NCBI RefSeq assembly: GCF_002214465.1
Contig: NZ_CP015101.1
Span: 80,502-112,501 of the forward strand
DNA length: 32,000 bases
Direction of reading: 5' to 3'
Origin: Thermococcus barossii
Lineage (GTDB): Archaea; Methanobacteriota_B; Thermococci; Thermococcales; Thermococcaceae
Shown here piece by piece: positions 12,538 through 32,000 of the stretch. Made by a program: the position numbers and the translations under genes. Below the pieces are notes generated by a model, which had not been told where the DNA came from, did not search any database, and was given only the letters and a program-made list of their open reading frames with translations. The stretch's first letter is position 1; each line of letters opens with the position of its first letter.

Positions 12538-12615
12538 GCCCGGGTGGTGTAGCCAGGCCCATCATACGGGACTGTCACTCCCGTGACTCGGGTTCAAATC
12601 CCGACCCGGGCGCCA
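12538..12615 (+). tRNA. tRNA-Asp (anticodon GUC), CCA encoded
   Basis: Cloverleaf folded by hand. The acceptor is GCCCGGG/CCCGGGC, the anticodon stem CGGGA/TCCCG with loop CTGTCAC, and the T arm TCGGG-TTCAAAT-CCCGA, followed by discriminator G and CCA. It starts about 7 nt after 5S, the known Thermococcales 5S-tRNA-Asp arrangement. Confidence 0.92.
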
Positions 12616-12834: not shown

Positions 12835-12912
12835 TGGCGGGCCGGACGGGATTCGAACCCGCGGCCACGGGGTTAAAAGCCCCGCGCTCTAACCAGGCTG
12901 AGCTACCGGCCC
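12835..12912 (-). tRNA. tRNA-Lys (anticodon UUU), CCA encoded
   Basis: The reverse complement is GGGCCGGTAGCTCAGCCTGGTTAGAGCGCGGGGCTTTTAACCCCGTGGCCGCGGGTTCGAATCCCGTCCGGCCCGCCA. The acceptor is GGGCCGG/CCGGCCC, the D stem GCTC/GAGC, the anticodon stem CGGGG/CCCCG with loop CTTTTAA, and the T loop TTCGAAT. Confidence 0.92.
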
Positions 12913-26653: not shown

Positions 26654-26735
26654 GGACGGGGCTTTGAGCGGGAGTTTAAAAAGGTGGTGGTGAGGTTTAT
26701 TAGCTCTGGGTTCGATAATCAAGCAGGTGTTGGTC

Positions 26736-29700
26736 ATGATCCTTGACGTTGATTACATCACAGAGGACGGAAAGCCCGTCATCAGGGTCTTCAAGAAGGA
26801 TAAAGGAGAGTTCAAAATTGAGTACGACAGAGAATTCGAGCCCTACATCTATGCTCTTCTCAGGGACGACTCTGCCATCGAAGAAATCGAAAAGATAACC
26901 GCAGAGAGGCACGGCAAGGTCGTTAAGGTTAAGCGCGCGGAGAAGGTGAAGAAAAAGTTCCTCGGCAGGTCTGTGGAGGTCTGGGTCCTCTACTTCACGC
27001 ACCCGCAGGACGTTCCGGCAATCCGCGACAAAATAAGGAAGCACCCCGCGGTCATCGACATCTACGAGTACGACATACCCTTCGCCAAGCGCTACCTCAT
27101 AGACAAGGGTCTCGTCCCGATGGAGGGCGATGAGGAGCTTAAACTCATGTCCTTCGACATCGAGACGCTCTACCACGAGGGAGAAGAGTTCGGAACCGGG
27201 CCGATTCTGATGATAAGCTACGCAGATGAAAGCGAGGCGCGTGTGATAACCTGGAAGAAGATCGACCTGCCCTACGTCGACGTTGTCTCCACCGAGAAGG
27301 AGATGATAAAGCGCTTCCTTAAGGTCGTTAAGGAGAAGGATCCGGACGTGCTGATAACATACAACGGCGACAACTTCGACTTCGCCTACCTCAAAAAGCG
27401 GTGTGAGAAGCTTGGCGTGAGCTTTACCCTCGGCAGGGACGGGAGCGAGCCGAAGATACAGCGCATGGGCGACCGCTTCGCCGTTGAGGTGAAGGGCAGG
27501 ATCCACTTCGACCTGTACCCCGTCATAAGGCGCACCATAAACCTCCCGACCTACACCCTTGAGGCTGTATACGAGGCGGTTTTCGGCAAGCCCAAGGAGA
27601 AGGTCTACGCCGAGGAGATAGCCACCGCTTGGGAGACCGGCGAGGGGCTTGAGAGGGTCGCGCGCTACTCGATGGAGGACGCGAGGGTTACCTACGAGCT
27701 TGGCAGGGAGTTCTTCCCGATGGAGGCCCAGCTTTCCAGGCTCATCGGCCAGGGTCTCTGGGACGTTTCCCGCTCCAGCACCGGCAACCTTGTTGAGTGG
27801 TTTTTGCTCAGGAAAGCCTACGAGAGGAACGAACTCGCTCCCAACAAGCCCGACGAGAGGGAGCTGGCGAGGAGAAGGGGGGGCTACGCCGGTGGCTACG
27901 TCAAGGAGCCGGAGCGGGGACTGTGGGATAATATTGTGTACCTCGATTTTCGCTCGCTGTACCCCTCCATTATCATCACCCACAACGTCTCGCCAGATAC
28001 GCTCAACCGCGAGGGATGTAAGAGCTACGACGTTGCCCCGCAGGTCGGTCACAAGTTCTGCAAAGACTTCCCCGGCTTCATTCCGAGCCTGCTCGGAAAC
28101 CTACTGGAGGAGAGGCAGAAGATAAAGAGGAAGATGAAGGCAACGCTTGACCCGCTGGAGAGGAAGCTTCTCGATTATCGCCAGCGCGCTATCAAAATCC
28201 TGGCGAACAGCTTCTACGGCTACTACGGCTACGCCAGGGCAAGATGGTACTGTAAGGAGTGCGCCGAGAGCGTTACGGCATGGGGCAGGGAGTACATAGA
28301 GACGACCATTCGCGAGATAGAGGAGAAGTTCGGGTTTAAGGTTCTCTATGCGGACAGCGTCACTAGTGACACTGAGGTAATAATCAGGCGGAACGGCCGG
28401 ATTGAGTTCGTACCAATAGAAAAACTCTTTGAGCGCGTGGATTACAGAATCGGAGAGAAAGAGTACTGCGTTCTGGAAAGCGTTGAAGCGTTAACCCTTG
28501 ATAACAGGGGAAGGCTCGTATGGAGACGGGTTCCCTACGTTATGCGGCACAGGACAAACAAGAGGATCTATCGCGTATGGTTCACTAACTCATGGTACCT
28601 TGACGTGACGGAGGACCACTCGTTAATAGGCTACATGAACACTAGCAGAGTAAAGCCCGGAAAGCCTTTGAAAGAGCGCCTCGTCGAGGTCAAGCCTGGA
28701 GAACTGGGAGAAAAGGCTAAGTCCCTCATTACACCCAACAGAGCGATTGCTCATAGCGTTAAGCTCAGCCCAATTGCTGTCAAGCTCTGGGAGTTAATCG
28801 GTCTGCTGGTAGGCGATGGTAACTGGGGTGGCCAATCGAACTGGGCCAAATACTACGTTGGCCTTTCCCTTGGAGTTGACAAGGAGGAGATTGAAGAGAA
28901 AATCCTGAAGCCCCTGAAGGAGACAGGCATTATCTCAAATTACTACGACAAGAACAAGAAGGGCGACGTTTCCATACTCTCCAAATGGCTCGCCGGGTTT
29001 ATGGTTAAACACTTCAAAGACGAGAACGGAAGCAAGAGGATTCCCGGGTTCATGTTCAACCTTCCAAGGGAATACATAGAGGCATTTCTACGGGGACTGT
29101 TTTCAGCAGACGGAACCGTGAGCCTGCGTAGAGGAATCCCAGAGATTAGGCTAACGAGTGTTAACGGGAAGCTCAGTGATACCGTGAGAAAGTTGCTGTG
29201 GCTCGTTGGAGTCTCCAACTCAGTATTCACCGAAACCAAACCAAACCGGTATCTGGGGAGAGAAAGTGGAACGCATTCAATTCACGTGAGGATAAAGGAC
29301 AAGCACCACTTTGCCGAGAGGATAGGCTTCATCCTCGACAGAAAAGTCACCAAACTCTCCGAGAACCTGAAGGGGCATACGAACAAGAAGAGGGCCTACA
29401 AATATGATTTCGACTTGGTGTATCCCAAGAAAGTTGAGGAGATAGCCTACGACGGCTACGTCTACGACATCGAAGTTGAGGGAACCCACAGGTTCTTCGC
29501 CAACGGAATACTCGTTCACAATACTGACGGTTTCTTCGCGACGATTCCCGGGGCTGATGCCGAGACCGTCAAAAAGAAGGCAAAGGAGTTCCTCAAGTAC
29601 ATAAACGCCAAACTGCCCGGCCTTCTTGAACTCGAATACGAGGGCTTCTACGTCAGGGGCTTCTTCGTCACGAAGAAGAAGTACGCGGTTATAGACGAGG

Positions 29701-30233
29701 AGGGCAAGATAACCACGCGCGGGCTTGAGATAGTTAGGAGGGACTGGAGCGAGATAGCGAAGGAGACGCAGGCGAGGGTTCTTGAGGCGATACTCAGGCA
29801 CGGTGACGTTGAGGAGGCCGTCAGAATCGTCAAGGAAGTGACGGAAAAGCTGAGCAAGTACGAGGTTCCGCCGGAGAAGCTGGTTATCCACGAGCAGATA
29901 ACGCGCGAGCTCAAAGACTACAAGGCCACCGGCCCGCACGTGGCCATAGCGAAGCGTTTGGCCGCCAGAGGTGTTAAAATCCGGCCCGGAACTGTGATAA
30001 GCTACATCGTCCTCAAGGGCTCGGGGAGGATAGGCGACAGGGCTATTCCCTTCGACGAGTTCGACCCGACGAAGCATAGGTACGATGCGGACTACTACAT
30101 CGAGAACCAGGTTCTGCCGGCAGTTGAGAGAATCCTTAGGGCCTTCGGCTACAAGAAGGAAGACCTGCGCTACCAGAAGACGAGGCAGGTTGGGCTTGGC
30201 GCGTGGCTGAAGCCGAAGGGGAAGAAGAAGTGA
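26736..30233 (+). CDS. polB: Family-B DNA polymerase (PolB) precursor containing one intein
   Basis: The ATG at 26736 is preceded by AGGTG; the track start at 26727 is a GTG. The N-terminus [21 protein letters not shown] is near-identical to Thermococcus PolB as I recall it. Motifs are ExoI FDIETLY, Exo[13 protein letters not shown], motif [11 protein letters not shown], motif [14 protein letters not shown] and motif C YAD|TDG, split by the intein. The exteins are 540 + 236 aa. Confidence 0.97.
28356..29522 (+). mobile_element. Intein with LAGLIDADG homing endonuclease in PolB motif C (pol-c insertion site)
   Basis: 389 codons, in frame. It starts with Ser right after YAD ([10 protein letters not shown]) and has block B TEDHSL. 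The two LAGLIDADG motifs are [13 protein letters not shown] and [13 protein letters not shown]. Blocks F/G are [21 protein letters not shown], followed by the +1 Thr of TDG. Confidence 0.92.
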
Positions 30234-30237
30234 GAAG

Positions 30238-31227
30238 TCATTTAGTCTCTTTCTCCAGCATTTTTGCTACAACCTCTTTTTCTAGTCTTTCTCTGACTTC
30301 CCTGAATCTTAGTTCTTGAAGAGATGTTCCATATTTTTTGAGAGTTTTATCAAGTTCTTTTCGTGATTCCCAGTACTTTTTTCGATTTTCTGGGGTTTTT
30401 GTTTGGAGATATGTAAGTTTATGTTTAAGAAATAGCTGGTACTTCTCACGGATCTCTTTGTTTATTCTTCCTTGTGCCTCTAACTTCTTTATTGCATTTC
30501 TGTAGAACTCATCATAATGGAAAAGCCATCCTTTATAGTCTGCACCCCAGACTCCAAGCTCATCCAAGAGTTCATGTCTGCTGGGATGGTAGACCCCCAA
30601 CACAAAGAGCCACTCTGGAGAATACTCATCTCTAATCAAGCTTATTGTTTGTTGTAGTAGCTCTTCACTTCTTACTGTAACATAGTTACTGTTGCCATTT
30701 CGTTTCAACAATCCACCAATAGCAATATATTTGTACCCAAGGTCTTGGAGCATTTCATAGCATTTTTTGTATTCGTCAGCATTGTTTCCTTGGGCCACGC
30801 CTATTAGTTTGAATTTTCTCTTAAACCCGTTGTCTTCGTAGACATTGATGGCCTCTTCGGCGCTTTTTAGGGTGGCTTTCATATCGTGGAGAACGTCTTT
30901 TATAATCCCATAATGAACTTTTAACTGAACATATTTCTCAAAAAGCTCTTCATAAGTGTGGTTTGAGCCGTTTTTCTGGAATACTCCACTATCAGAGATT
31001 TTTATGATATTCCTTTTTAGGAGTTTATTAATTTCTCTTTTATTTTTTTGAATCTCGTCAACATATTTCAGTTGGGTCTTAGATGGAAACTTACTAAACA
31101 ATTCGATGAATTGAGGAGAGACATTAGCATGAGTCATCAGTCCAAATTGAAGACTTGGGAACTTCAGGAATAAACCTTTGAGAATTTCTAAGCTAGCTCG
31201 GCGATCTAAAACAAAAAATGGGATCAT
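30238..31227 (-). CDS. Divergent TGT-fold (tRNA-guanine transglycosylase / DpdA-like) protein with Lys-rich helical tail
   Basis: 329 aa in low-GC DNA. ISDSGVFQ resembles the TGT substrate-binding motif (T)DSGGFQ, YIAIGGL resembles (Y/F)AIGGL, and LGVWGADYKGW sits where TGT has the G-x-D-x-F-D nucleophile strand. There is only one Cys, so no CxCxxC...H zinc site. A strong SD (AGGAGGT) lies 7 nt upstream of the ATG. The family assignment rests on motif recollection only. Confidence 0.5.
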   Translation of the reverse strand: MIPFFVLDRRASLEILKGLFLKFPSLQFGLMTHANVSPQFIELFSKFPSKTQLKYVDEIQKNKREINKLLKRNIIKISDSGVFQKNGSNHTYEELFEKYVQLKVHYGIIKDVLHDMKATLKSAEEAINVYEDNGFKRKFKLIGVAQGNNADEYKKCYEMLQDLGYKYIAIGGLLKRNGNSNYVTVRSEELLQQTISLIRDEYSPEWLFVLGVYHPSRHELLDELGVWGADYKGWLFHYDEFYRNAIKKLEAQGRINKEIREKYQLFLKHKLTYLQTKTPENRKKYWESRKELDKTLKKYGTSLQELRFREVRERLEKEVVAKMLEKETK

Positions 31228-31250
31228 CGAGATTAACCTCCTTTTTGATT

Positions 31251-32000
31251 CTAGTCTGTAACCTCTGTCCTACCACAACAGTGTTCGGGTAAATTGTTTA
31301 AAAACTCTATTACCTTGATATTTGCATTTTCGAAATGTACTGGGATTGGAACTGCTTCCATACCTAGTGCATCATGGCTGATCACTAGCCAGTCACCTTT
31401 TTTGAATTTAAACGTCTGGTTAAACATGTCTAATCCCAGTCCAAATGCTTCTGCAACTGCTTCTCTGTCTGTTTTTCGCGGGAGTTTACTTACGAAGTAA
31501 GTATGTGGTTGTGCGAGGATGCTTGTATTTAGGTACCGAATTCTCTGAGTTGCTATCCCAAGCCCTAGTCCAAACTTTCTTCCTCTCCTAGCTAATTTCA
31601 TTGCAATATCTGAGGAATGTTTGTATGATTCGTTTCTCTTGTCAACATCTTGGGGAATAAATTCATCGGCCTCATCAAATATGAATACTGTTGTAGGAGT
31701 AATAACTCCATTTTTCCGTCTTTCTTCGTACAATCTTGTACCTAGCTCCCAGGAAGTATTCCGTATTTGATTTGGATCGTGTGATACAAAGATTAGAATG
31801 TTCGGATTGTCTTTTGAATTTAATAGTTCAATGATCTGTGATGTTGTAATACCGAGTGCCATTGGGGTGCCTGTTCTTGTTTTTATGTTTTCCAGTGCAA
31901 GTTTGATTTTTCCGAAACTTTCTTTTATATCTTCAGATTTCCCCCGAAGTTCAGACTCCAGTTTGTTGAGAAGTTTTTCAGCCAGTTCTGGGGTTACAAT
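31251..32000 (-). CDS. HerA/FtsK-clade (DUF87-type) P-loop ATPase, partial (5' end beyond the window)
   Basis: The track lists 31251..31862 from an internal Met. By hand, the frame stays open upstream to base 32000 (IVTPELAEKLL...). The Walker B-like motif is TTVFIFDEADEFIP. ARRGRKFGLGLGIATQRIRYLNTSILAQ matches the HerA-type (E)GRK(F/Y)G(V/L)GL..(S/T)QRP core. The Walker A motif must lie outside the window. Confidence 0.6.
   Translation of the reverse strand: MVTPELAEKLLNKLESELRGKSEDIKESFGKIKLALENIKTRTGTPMALGITTSQIIELLNSKDNPNILIFVSHDPNQIRNTSWELGTRLYEERRKNGVITPTTVFIFDEADEFIPQDVDKRNESYKHSSDIAMKLARRGRKFGLGLGIATQRIRYLNTSILAQPHTYFVSKLPRKTDREAVAEAFGLGLDMFNQTFKFKKGDWLVISHDALGMEAVPIPVHFENANIKVIEFLNNLPEHCCGRTEVTD

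Follow-up and report, generated by a model that had tools for sequence, protein, structure and literature searches.

The Dpd system of Salmonella Montevideo, in which the modification proteins DpdA-B-C are coupled to the restriction proteins DpdD-K, is the closest described system to the gene cassette of Thermococcus barossii that is considered here. The cassette is seen at one end of a stretch of 32,000 nucleotides (nt) of the genome (contig NZ_CP015101.1, positions 80,502 to 112,501; hereafter the window), where a gene for a HerA-family ATPase stands next to a gene for a protein of 329 amino acids (aa) similar to tRNA-guanine transglycosylase (TGT) and DpdA, hereafter the TGT-like protein. 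The best explanation of this arrangement is a four-gene cassette of ~5.4 kb which was acquired horizontally, reaches into the window with its 3' end, and encodes a DUF6884 protein, a NurA-type nuclease, HerA and the DpdA-like protein. We are much more confident that the cassette is conserved, mobile, made of four components and of the defence type than we are of the mechanism proposed for it. For the latter, which we give a little better than an even chance, the logic would be restriction-modification-like: the TGT-like and DUF6884 proteins would mark the cell's own DNA, and NurA-HerA would restrict DNA that is unmarked.

Like Dpd, the cassette encodes a TGT-fold DNA transglycosylase (here predicted) with equal catalytic and base-pocket residues and, in relatives of the window, a partner of the YaaA/DUF328-DUF6884 superfamily, and couples a putative modification module to helicase and nuclease genes of restriction; a relative of the cassette (locus L035) even uses DpdJ-like and DpdK-like proteins. 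Unlike in Dpd, the transglycosylase belongs to a separate and shorter family (36.9 bits against the DpdA cut-off of 200) which is devoid of the Zn site, the ParB-like DpdB is missing, and the DpdC-like partner is of the short DUF6884 form. The predicted restriction arm of the window type is NurA-HerA and not DpdD-K, and the cassette is mainly archaeal and found in thermophiles.

In the literature found, a HerA/FtsK translocase is combined with a TGT homologue in one published system only, BREX-Related Capture (BRC; Nucleic Acids Research, 2026), where the TGT is proposed to serve as the marker of self DNA. BRC comprises PglZ, DUF6079 (BrxC-like), a STAND NTPase, DUF4007 and a DndH-like HerA, with GNAT and TGT in some loci only, and its authors report no DpdC homologue (PMC12839542). 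Hence, the architecture of BRC differs from that of the cassette, in whose relatives PglZ, DUF6079, STAND and DUF4007 recur in none of 36 loci, compact contigs show four genes only, DUF6884 is near-constant and the partner of HerA is NurA-like. The BRC supplement lists no Thermococcus. A preliminary description of the window had known of no described system that pairs HerA with a TGT-like protein; as to the bare combination this has been overtaken by BRC (PMC12839542), and as to the architecture it still stands. The full-text literature on DUF6884, PDC-M57, DpdA with HerA, and TGT with HerA and NurA yielded no account of this cassette.

Other described systems share single arms with the cassette. 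The archaeal and bacterial NurA-HerA complex of end resection likewise combines a hexameric motor of the HerA family with a NurA-fold nuclease encoded just upstream, as does the 'Type III co-evolved' HerA/NurA pair, an accessory of CRISPR-Cas loci. Unlike the housekeeping NurA-HerA, the cassette proteins score far under the equivalog cut-offs, linkage to mre11-rad50 is absent, the NurA-like protein is of ~600-690 aa with large insertions, and the pair lies between the DUF6884 and TGT-like genes; the 'Type III co-evolved' copy of Caldicellulosiruptor differs in being a degraded relic without a TGT gene. SIR2-HerA and DUF4297-HerA are similar in that they, too, are compact and mobile defence operons which join a HerA ATPase with an effector enzyme. 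They differ in that the effector of the cassette is NurA-type and two extra genes of predicted base exchange are present, and their PADLOC HerA models match the HerA of the window at 1e-6 to 1e-13 as against 4e-45 for the model PDLC01055. Dnd/Ssp phosphorothioation consists of a marking module with alternative restriction modules, and the marking module also occurs as an orphan (PMC10853773). The cassette resembles it in the portable DNA-marking module, the interchangeable restriction modules and the orphans, and DndH carries a HerA domain; it differs in the proposed exchange of a base instead of backbone sulphur, and the proteins are unrelated. Overall, the cassette would follow a Dpd-like base-exchange restriction-modification logic, in which the transglycosylase is of a new family and NurA-HerA serves as the restriction arm; this assembly is undescribed in the literature found.

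The features of this end of the window are as follows.

30238..31227, minus strand: TGT-fold, DpdA-like putative DNA transglycosylase, 329 aa (open reading frame, ORF); last gene of the cassette
31228..31250, minus strand: spacer of 23 nt between the HerA and TGT-like genes, with the Shine-Dalgarno sequence AGGAGGT (sequence); also the module breakpoint
31251..32000, minus strand: C-terminal 249 codons of the HerA-family ATPase (translation); the frame is open to the window end
30234..30237: left edge of the foreign cassette, a gap of 4 nt between the stop codons of polB and the TGT-like gene (sequence)
26727..30233, plus strand: family B DNA polymerase gene (polB) with one intein, 1168 aa (ORF); native flank that marks the insertion site

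The two co-oriented genes and the 23-nt gap with a perfect AGGAGGT, as described earlier, are thus found at these coordinates, and both genes are encoded by the minus strand. Read along the coding strand, the spacer is AATCAAAAAGGAGGTTAATCTCG, with AGGAGGT 8 nt ahead of the ATG of the TGT-like gene. The 329-aa protein is 100% identical to an NCBI entry from T. barossii. The portion of the cassette past 32000 was studied through its closest relatives as proxies (L042/L043 and L040/L041). The order in L042 is a DUF6884 gene (143 aa), a 693-aa protein, HerA (619 aa), the TGT-like gene (328 aa) and the 3' end of polB, and its TGT-like and HerA proteins are 87% and 94% identical (the latter over all 249 residues) to those of the window. 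The same arrangement, with genes that are frameshifted, is found in L040. The further components that had been thought possible beyond the window end are hence present in the closest relatives, as a NurA-type nuclease and a DUF6884/DpdC-like protein. In L042, the closest full-length relative, the cassette is directly preceded by a ParE-family toxin gene (L042:386-643, plus strand) and several small ORFs, which fits a mobile or defence-island setting.

The transglycosylase-like protein and its DUF6884 partner

By sequence, the assignment of the 329-aa protein to the TGT superfamily is weak. It carries the motifs SDSGVFQ and IAIGGL, and the Pfam TGT profile (PF01702) matches it at 18.3 bits (E=1.3e-3), which is below the gathering score of 26.3. 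Similarly, the NCBIfam DpdA model (NF041059) gives 36.9 bits, tgt_general gives 20 bits against a cut-off of 47.6, and the PADLOC DpdA model matches at E 2e-10 across ~70 residues. The Pfam profile of DUF6610 (DpdA4) does not match the protein.

The structure prediction bears out the TGT/DpdA-like fold, a TIM barrel, that had been proposed from the motifs. The AlphaFold2 (AF2) model, built with 20 homologues, has a predicted local distance difference test score (pLDDT) of 90.5, and a Foldseek search of the PDB placed DpdA (7ui4, the DNA preQ0 insertase) on top at E 1.6e-9. Below it come bacterial TGT entries, over 40 in number, at a TM score of ~0.5. In DpdA, D95 acts as acid/base, F99 in base stacking and D256 as the nucleophile, while an Asp, a Gln/His-Gly and a Gly-Gly serve in base recognition (PMC10164549). 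When the family profile was aligned to 7ui4, D79 corresponded to D95, F83 to F99, D111 to D130, Q146-G147 to H181-G182, G171-G172 to G206-G207 and D230 to D256, and all of these positions of the TGT-like protein are invariant in 20 family members. As the catalytic and pocket columns are all invariant, the enzyme looks catalytically competent, with a pocket of the guanine/7-deazaguanine type. Its proposed activity is the exchange of guanine in DNA for preQ0 or another 7-deazaguanine.

The C-terminal part is different. In the AF2 model, residues 257-328 form a helical extension where the Zn site would be, and RNA-binding C-terminal domains are absent; the protein of the window has a single Cys. 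It fits none of the subfamilies bDpdA and DpdA1-4 (as in PMC10516641). An exhaustive hidden Markov model search of 1.84 billion representatives retrieved 119 proteins at E<=1e-30, a number that rose to 164 with the threshold relaxed to E<=1e-10. Together, the missing Zn site and the sub-threshold scores indicate that the protein belongs to a separate family, which by its profiles is rare, well separated and DpdA-like. An ordinary tRNA-modifying TGT paralogue which sits by chance beside a HerA gene would account for the weak Pfam and TIGRFAM matches to tRNA-guanine transglycosylase, and for the UniRef label of a 'tRNA-guanine(15) transglycosylase-like domain' protein. It is very improbable, as such an enzyme would not be expected to be without the Zn site and the RNA-binding domains, to have the DNA enzyme DpdA as its best structural match, to be rare and patchy, and to stand in tight operons with nuclease and helicase modules at at least 30 loci.

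When phages and plasmids were searched for the TGT-like family, no phage match was found and the plasmid matches were weak and only to canonical dpdA. The sole viral match is a 73-aa ORF (L044:8001-8222, plus strand) on the IMG/VR contig IMGVR_UViG_3300042275_000783, which lies in a series of short ORFs of equal orientation and shares 69% identity with residues 1-55 of the TGT-like protein. This ORF could represent a captured fragment or an anti-defence gene of the decoy type.

The near-constant companion of the TGT-like gene is DUF6884, which stands beside it or is fused to its C-terminus in nearly all informative loci. The DUF6884 protein matches the PADLOC DpdC model at ~5e-6 and, more strongly, PDC-M57A, a model of a candidate system (6e-14), and the fusions of TGT and DUF6884 bear PF03883 (YaaA/DUF328), the DpdC family. 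The motifs CxxxK and LSAxxG, known from the DUF6884 family (PMC11701544), are retained. Another member of the family, YfjM, was pulled down on abasic and RNA-base lesions (PMC11701544).

HerA, the NurA-like nuclease and module exchange

The 249 codons of HerA in the window contain FIFDEADEF (Walker B) and RKFGLGLGIATQR. The best match of this fragment is the PADLOC HerA model PDLC01055 (E=3.9e-45), followed by ten other HerA models, so that its earlier placing in the HerA/FtsK clade holds. PDLC01055, a PADLOC/CCTyper model, stems from the 'Type III co-evolved' HerA cluster (Calkr_2542) of Shah et al. (PMC6546367). A 'Type III co-evolved' copy in Caldicellulosiruptor was examined for a TGT gene and has none, being a decayed relic; in Caldicellulosiruptor bescii (L047:8531-9543) only a fused NurA-like/HerA remnant is left. 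In L042, whose HerA has 619 aa and contains Pfam DUF87 (the HerA central domain), residues 371-619 correspond to the fragment of the window with 94% identity, and the N-terminal HAS barrel and Walker A region would lie beyond the window end. The homologues found with the fragment were for the most part short fragments themselves, and the full-length protein of T. barossii was not among them. The HerA proteins of two further relatives (L003 and L004) have DUF87 with weak HAS-barrel matches. The housekeeping repair HerA was considered as the identity of the window protein and is excluded by the NCBIfam model helicase_HerA, which reaches 38.9 bits against a cut-off of 970; HerA_Thermprot likewise gives 34.5 against 800.

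Upstream of HerA in the relatives lies a partner of 600-690 aa, whose family has over 400 members. The sequence profile of this family found nothing in the PDB, and it was the fold search alone that succeeded. The AF2 model of the type that accompanies the HerA of the window has a pLDDT of 84.6, and its ten best PDB matches in Foldseek are all NurA (E 7e-10 to 3e-6), with the HerA-NurA complex of T. kodakarensis on top (9x1m_G, E 6.8e-10). Pfam NurA matches the partner in L009 at 28.1 bits, which is above the gathering score, while PADLOC has no model for this protein. The catalytic residues of PfNurA are D51, E105, D126 and H411 (PMC3300031), and D76, E164, D185 and H559 of the partner are invariant and occur in the same order. 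On its predicted model, the ~600-aa partner is thus a NurA-type nuclease with an RNase H-like/PIWI fold and a D-E-D-H metal site.

Within the Thermococcaceae, TGT-like genes which are more than 80% identical stand behind two unrelated types of HerA and partner. The TGT-like protein of the window is 92% identical to that of L003 and 82% to that of L004. Its HerA, in turn, is 25-30% identical to the HerA of L003 and L004 and 42-57% to the HerA which accompanies the NurA-like type 'X614'. The DNA similarity to L003 (5935-5955) and L004 (4142-4161) starts at the start codon of the TGT-like gene and the sequence upstream is unrelated, which places a recombination breakpoint in the 23-nt spacer (31228-31250). 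L003 and L004, the closest relatives by the TGT-like gene, were rejected as models of the operon of the window, as their HerA and partner are of another type. The TGT-like and DUF6884 pair behaves like a portable modification module or hub, being constant, sometimes fused and sometimes orphan.

Gene neighbourhoods and candidate mechanisms

The scan of one genome per GTDB species gave 37 loci with the TGT-like gene, none of them from the T. barossii genome of the window, and on these ORFs were called and clustered. HerA is the immediate neighbour in 21 of the 37, with genes that overlap or are tightly spaced; this pairing is far beyond chance, and the co-occurrence of the two families, which the preliminary description had proposed to seek in other genomes, is hence real. 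The ~600-aa partner upstream is intact in 19 of these 21 loci; of the other two, the first is truncated where its contig ends and the second is degraded. All of the 19 intact genes upstream of HerA are the ~600-aa NurA-like type, and SIR2 or DUF4297 is found in none. DUF6884 is present in 18 of the 21 (upstream of the partner in 10, downstream of the TGT-like gene in one, and as a C-terminal fusion to it in seven). Likewise, when NurA-like members were picked regardless of TGT, in Methanolobus tindarius and in a Methanoperedenaceae genome, both had HerA and a TGT-DUF6884 fusion.

The remaining loci show other associations. SIR2-ORC/Cdc6 with a CARF-like protein, a module separate from and alternative to NurA-HerA, occurs in four (L010, L014, L033, L039). 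DrmA (split by an insertion sequence element), DrmB and DrmC occur in one, in an operon without the methyltransferase (L026). A DruE-like helicase-PLD protein occurs in one and likewise in T. thermotolerans (DruE-like proteins being seen in L001 and L027), and DpdJ-like and DpdK-like PLD proteins occur in one (L035). DUF6884 and TGT-like genes only, amid housekeeping genes, make up four (L006, L007, L008, L012), whereas two loci have the TGT-like gene alone and three are uninformative. In the flanks (130 proteins, 36 loci), no Pfam family besides NurA-like, HerA, DUF6884 and TGT is found in more than three proteins. Neither ParB/DpdB nor PglZ recurs among them, in keeping with the earlier remark that it is in the Dpd system that DpdA enzymes pair with a ParB-like DpdB, and not with HerA. 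The hosts among archaea are Thermococcaceae, Methanococcus, Methanosarcinales, Thermoplasmata, Archaeoglobus, Halobacteria and Bathyarchaeia, and among bacteria Aquificota, WOR-3, Thermotogota, cyanobacteria, Planctomycetota and Acidobacteriota.

Several of these loci deserve separate mention. In Methanolobus tindarius DSM 2278 (L045:7001-15422), the TGT-DUF6884 fusion has the NurA-like and HerA genes to one side and, to the other, a convergent module of a 334-aa gene and an 826-aa SIR2-ORC/Cdc6-like protein, so that two effector modules flank one putative modification gene. In a Thermoplasmata metagenome-assembled genome (MAG; L026:2403-11290), a DISARM-like operon ends in a TGT-DUF6884 fusion and not in a methyltransferase; as its DrmA is split by the insertion of a DDE transposase, this copy may be inactive. 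In two WOR-3 MAGs (L015:9178-9792 and L019:5027-5641), the TGT-like gene is without detectable DUF6884 or HerA nearby and is preceded by a small methyltransferase (PADLOC mad2 of the MADS system, 1.6e-18). Decaying copies include L040:819-4728, with frameshifted NurA-like and HerA genes, and L034:5800-10897, in which the NurA-like gene is truncated and the TGT-like gene is split.

The association with HerA could also mean that the whole cassette is a machine for modification only, in which HerA with the NurA-like protein replaces DpdB and opens or threads the DNA for base insertion, with no restriction arm. Bacterial DpdA indeed needs the ATPase DpdB for preQ0 insertion (PMC10164549) and no DpdB homologue recurs here, and the HerA and TGT-like genes overlap or are translationally coupled at many loci. 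This explanation is unlikely, as the TGT-like and DUF6884 genes are found without a nearby ATPase (the four loci amid housekeeping genes) and with very different partners (DrmABC, DruE-like, SIR2-ORC), near-identical TGT-like genes are served by two unrelated HerA/partner types, and the invariant D-E-D-H nuclease site of the NurA-like protein would be needless for a mere loader. Rather, HerA is probably not the helper of the transglycosylase, and is more likely one half of a NurA-HerA restriction module that is exchangeable for other effector modules.

The TGT-like and DUF6884 pair is portable, fused, orphan, found in the position of a methyltransferase and flanked on both sides by effectors, which is the pattern of Dnd/Ssp and Dpd, and for this reason the mechanism is most likely restriction-modification-like. 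In it, the Zn-less DpdA-like enzyme would act on the DNA of its own cell and replace guanine by a 7-deazaguanine, with preQ0 (7-cyano-7-deazaguanine) as the likely base. The DUF6884 protein would bind DNA and present the target base, or would convert the inserted base in the way that DpdC converts preQ0 to 7-amido-7-deazaguanine (ADG). The NurA-HerA translocase-nuclease would load on unmarked incoming DNA and degrade it. Archaea already make preQ0 for the archaeosine of tRNA, and the archaeosine/queuosine pathway of the host is established. Folds, conserved catalytic residues, gene linkage, module exchange and foreign composition are shown by the analysis, and what we infer is that the substrate is DNA, which base is inserted, that the mark denotes self, and that NurA-HerA acts in restriction.

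The same genes may be read the other way round, as a modification-dependent (type IV-like) defence in which the TGT-like enzyme excises 7-deazaguanines or odd viral bases and NurA-HerA degrades the abasic or adduct-bearing DNA. DNA glycosylases against phages modified with 7-deazaguanine are a proven class of defence (bioRxiv 10.1101/2025.10.29.685425), archaeal viruses carry 7-deazaguanine bases (PMC10516641), and the TGT-like enzyme has a base pocket of the 7-deazaguanine/guanine type. That the enzyme is constantly linked or fused to a DpdC-related domain suits a writer over a reader, as does the place of its gene at the methylase position of the DISARM-like operon, and the orphan pairs amid housekeeping genes look like orphan modification modules. 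Hence, this reading is slightly less likely again than a machine for modification only.

A mobile DNA-repair cassette would involve a transglycosylase that swaps damaged guanines, a DUF6884 protein that senses lesions and a NurA-HerA that resects ends. It would agree with YaaA being a peroxide-stress DNA-binding protein. The pull-down of YfjM (DUF6884) on abasic and RNA-base lesions (PMC11701544) and the match to the archaeal NurA-HerA repair machine (PDB 9x1m) point in the same direction. The sporadic distribution, the foreign composition and the degraded copies (L034, L040, L047) speak against it, the modules with which it associates (DrmABC, DruE, SIR2, PLD nucleases) are hallmarks of defence, and the housekeeping HerA of T. 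barossii belongs to a different protein family, which together make a role in repair improbable.

Several points weigh against restriction by NurA-HerA and marking by the TGT-like enzyme. NurA-HerA is best known for the resection of ends in repair rather than for restriction. Every sequence score of the TGT-like protein lies under the curated family thresholds, and the structural Zn site that is conserved in TGTs and DpdAs is absent, with no invariant or near-invariant Cys/His column in the family alignment; the substrate could also be RNA instead of DNA. The genes for preQ0 synthesis (QueC/D/E, FolE) are linked at no locus among the 130 flanking proteins, and the inserted base is therefore a guess. 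The partner of the L003 type ('X590') shows no tie to NurA (hhalign profile-profile probability of 3.5%). Finally, the NurA-like and DUF6884 genes of T. barossii itself are expected by extension from L042 and the identity of its HerA (94%) and TGT-like protein (87%).

A wider proposal is more tentative, with somewhat less than an even chance. It holds that a sixth, cellular and Zn-less DpdA-like subfamily with DUF6884 writes a 7-deazaguanine-type or novel base into the chromosomes of archaea and thermophilic bacteria as a universal and portable 'self' tag, that the tag is shared by at least five unrelated restriction engines (NurA-HerA, DISARM DrmABC, Druantia-like DruE, DpdJ/K-like and SIR2-ORC), and that NurA-HerA is a bona fide restriction nuclease. 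If the restriction-modification-like reading is right, the genomes of cellular archaea, Thermococcus among them, would contain exchanged bases of the 7-deazaguanine type, which to our knowledge are documented so far in bacteria, phages and archaeal viruses. NurA-HerA, a known repair resection complex, would double as a restriction engine. A base-exchange module could stand in for the methyltransferase in DISARM-like and Druantia-like systems, and such a replacement would help explain how helicase-based systems discriminate self from non-self. DUF6884 gains a context and a candidate role, and the new DpdA-like family is overlooked by the present defence-finder models. A thermostable DNA transglycosylase without a Zn site, and apparently without an ATPase partner, could serve in site-specific replacement of DNA bases.

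Insertion site and native flank

The foreign composition of the DNA, noted before, is evident at the edge of the cassette. The GC content is 0.377 in 30234-32000 and 0.547 in 1-30233, and the break coincides with the junction of polB and the TGT-like gene, which are convergent with stop codons 4 nt apart. The GC content at third codon positions is 0.32-0.36 in the cassette as against 0.73 in the adjoining polB, whose overall GC is 0.538. Along with the linkage and the extra components, this composition supports the earlier view of a mobile defence or DNA-modification cassette. At the visible boundary of the cassette there is neither a tRNA gene nor an integrase.

The cassette adjoins the 3' end of polB in the window and likewise in L040 and L042, and the junction common to these three Thermococcus-like sequences implies a shared insertion site or inheritance within a clade. 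The polB homologue of L040 matches Pfam DNA_pol_B, Intein_splicing and LAGLIDADG. Two tRNA genes, tRNA-Asp(GTC) at 12538-12615 (plus strand) and tRNA-Lys(TTT) at 12835-12912 (minus strand), belong to the native part of the window and are distant from the cassette.

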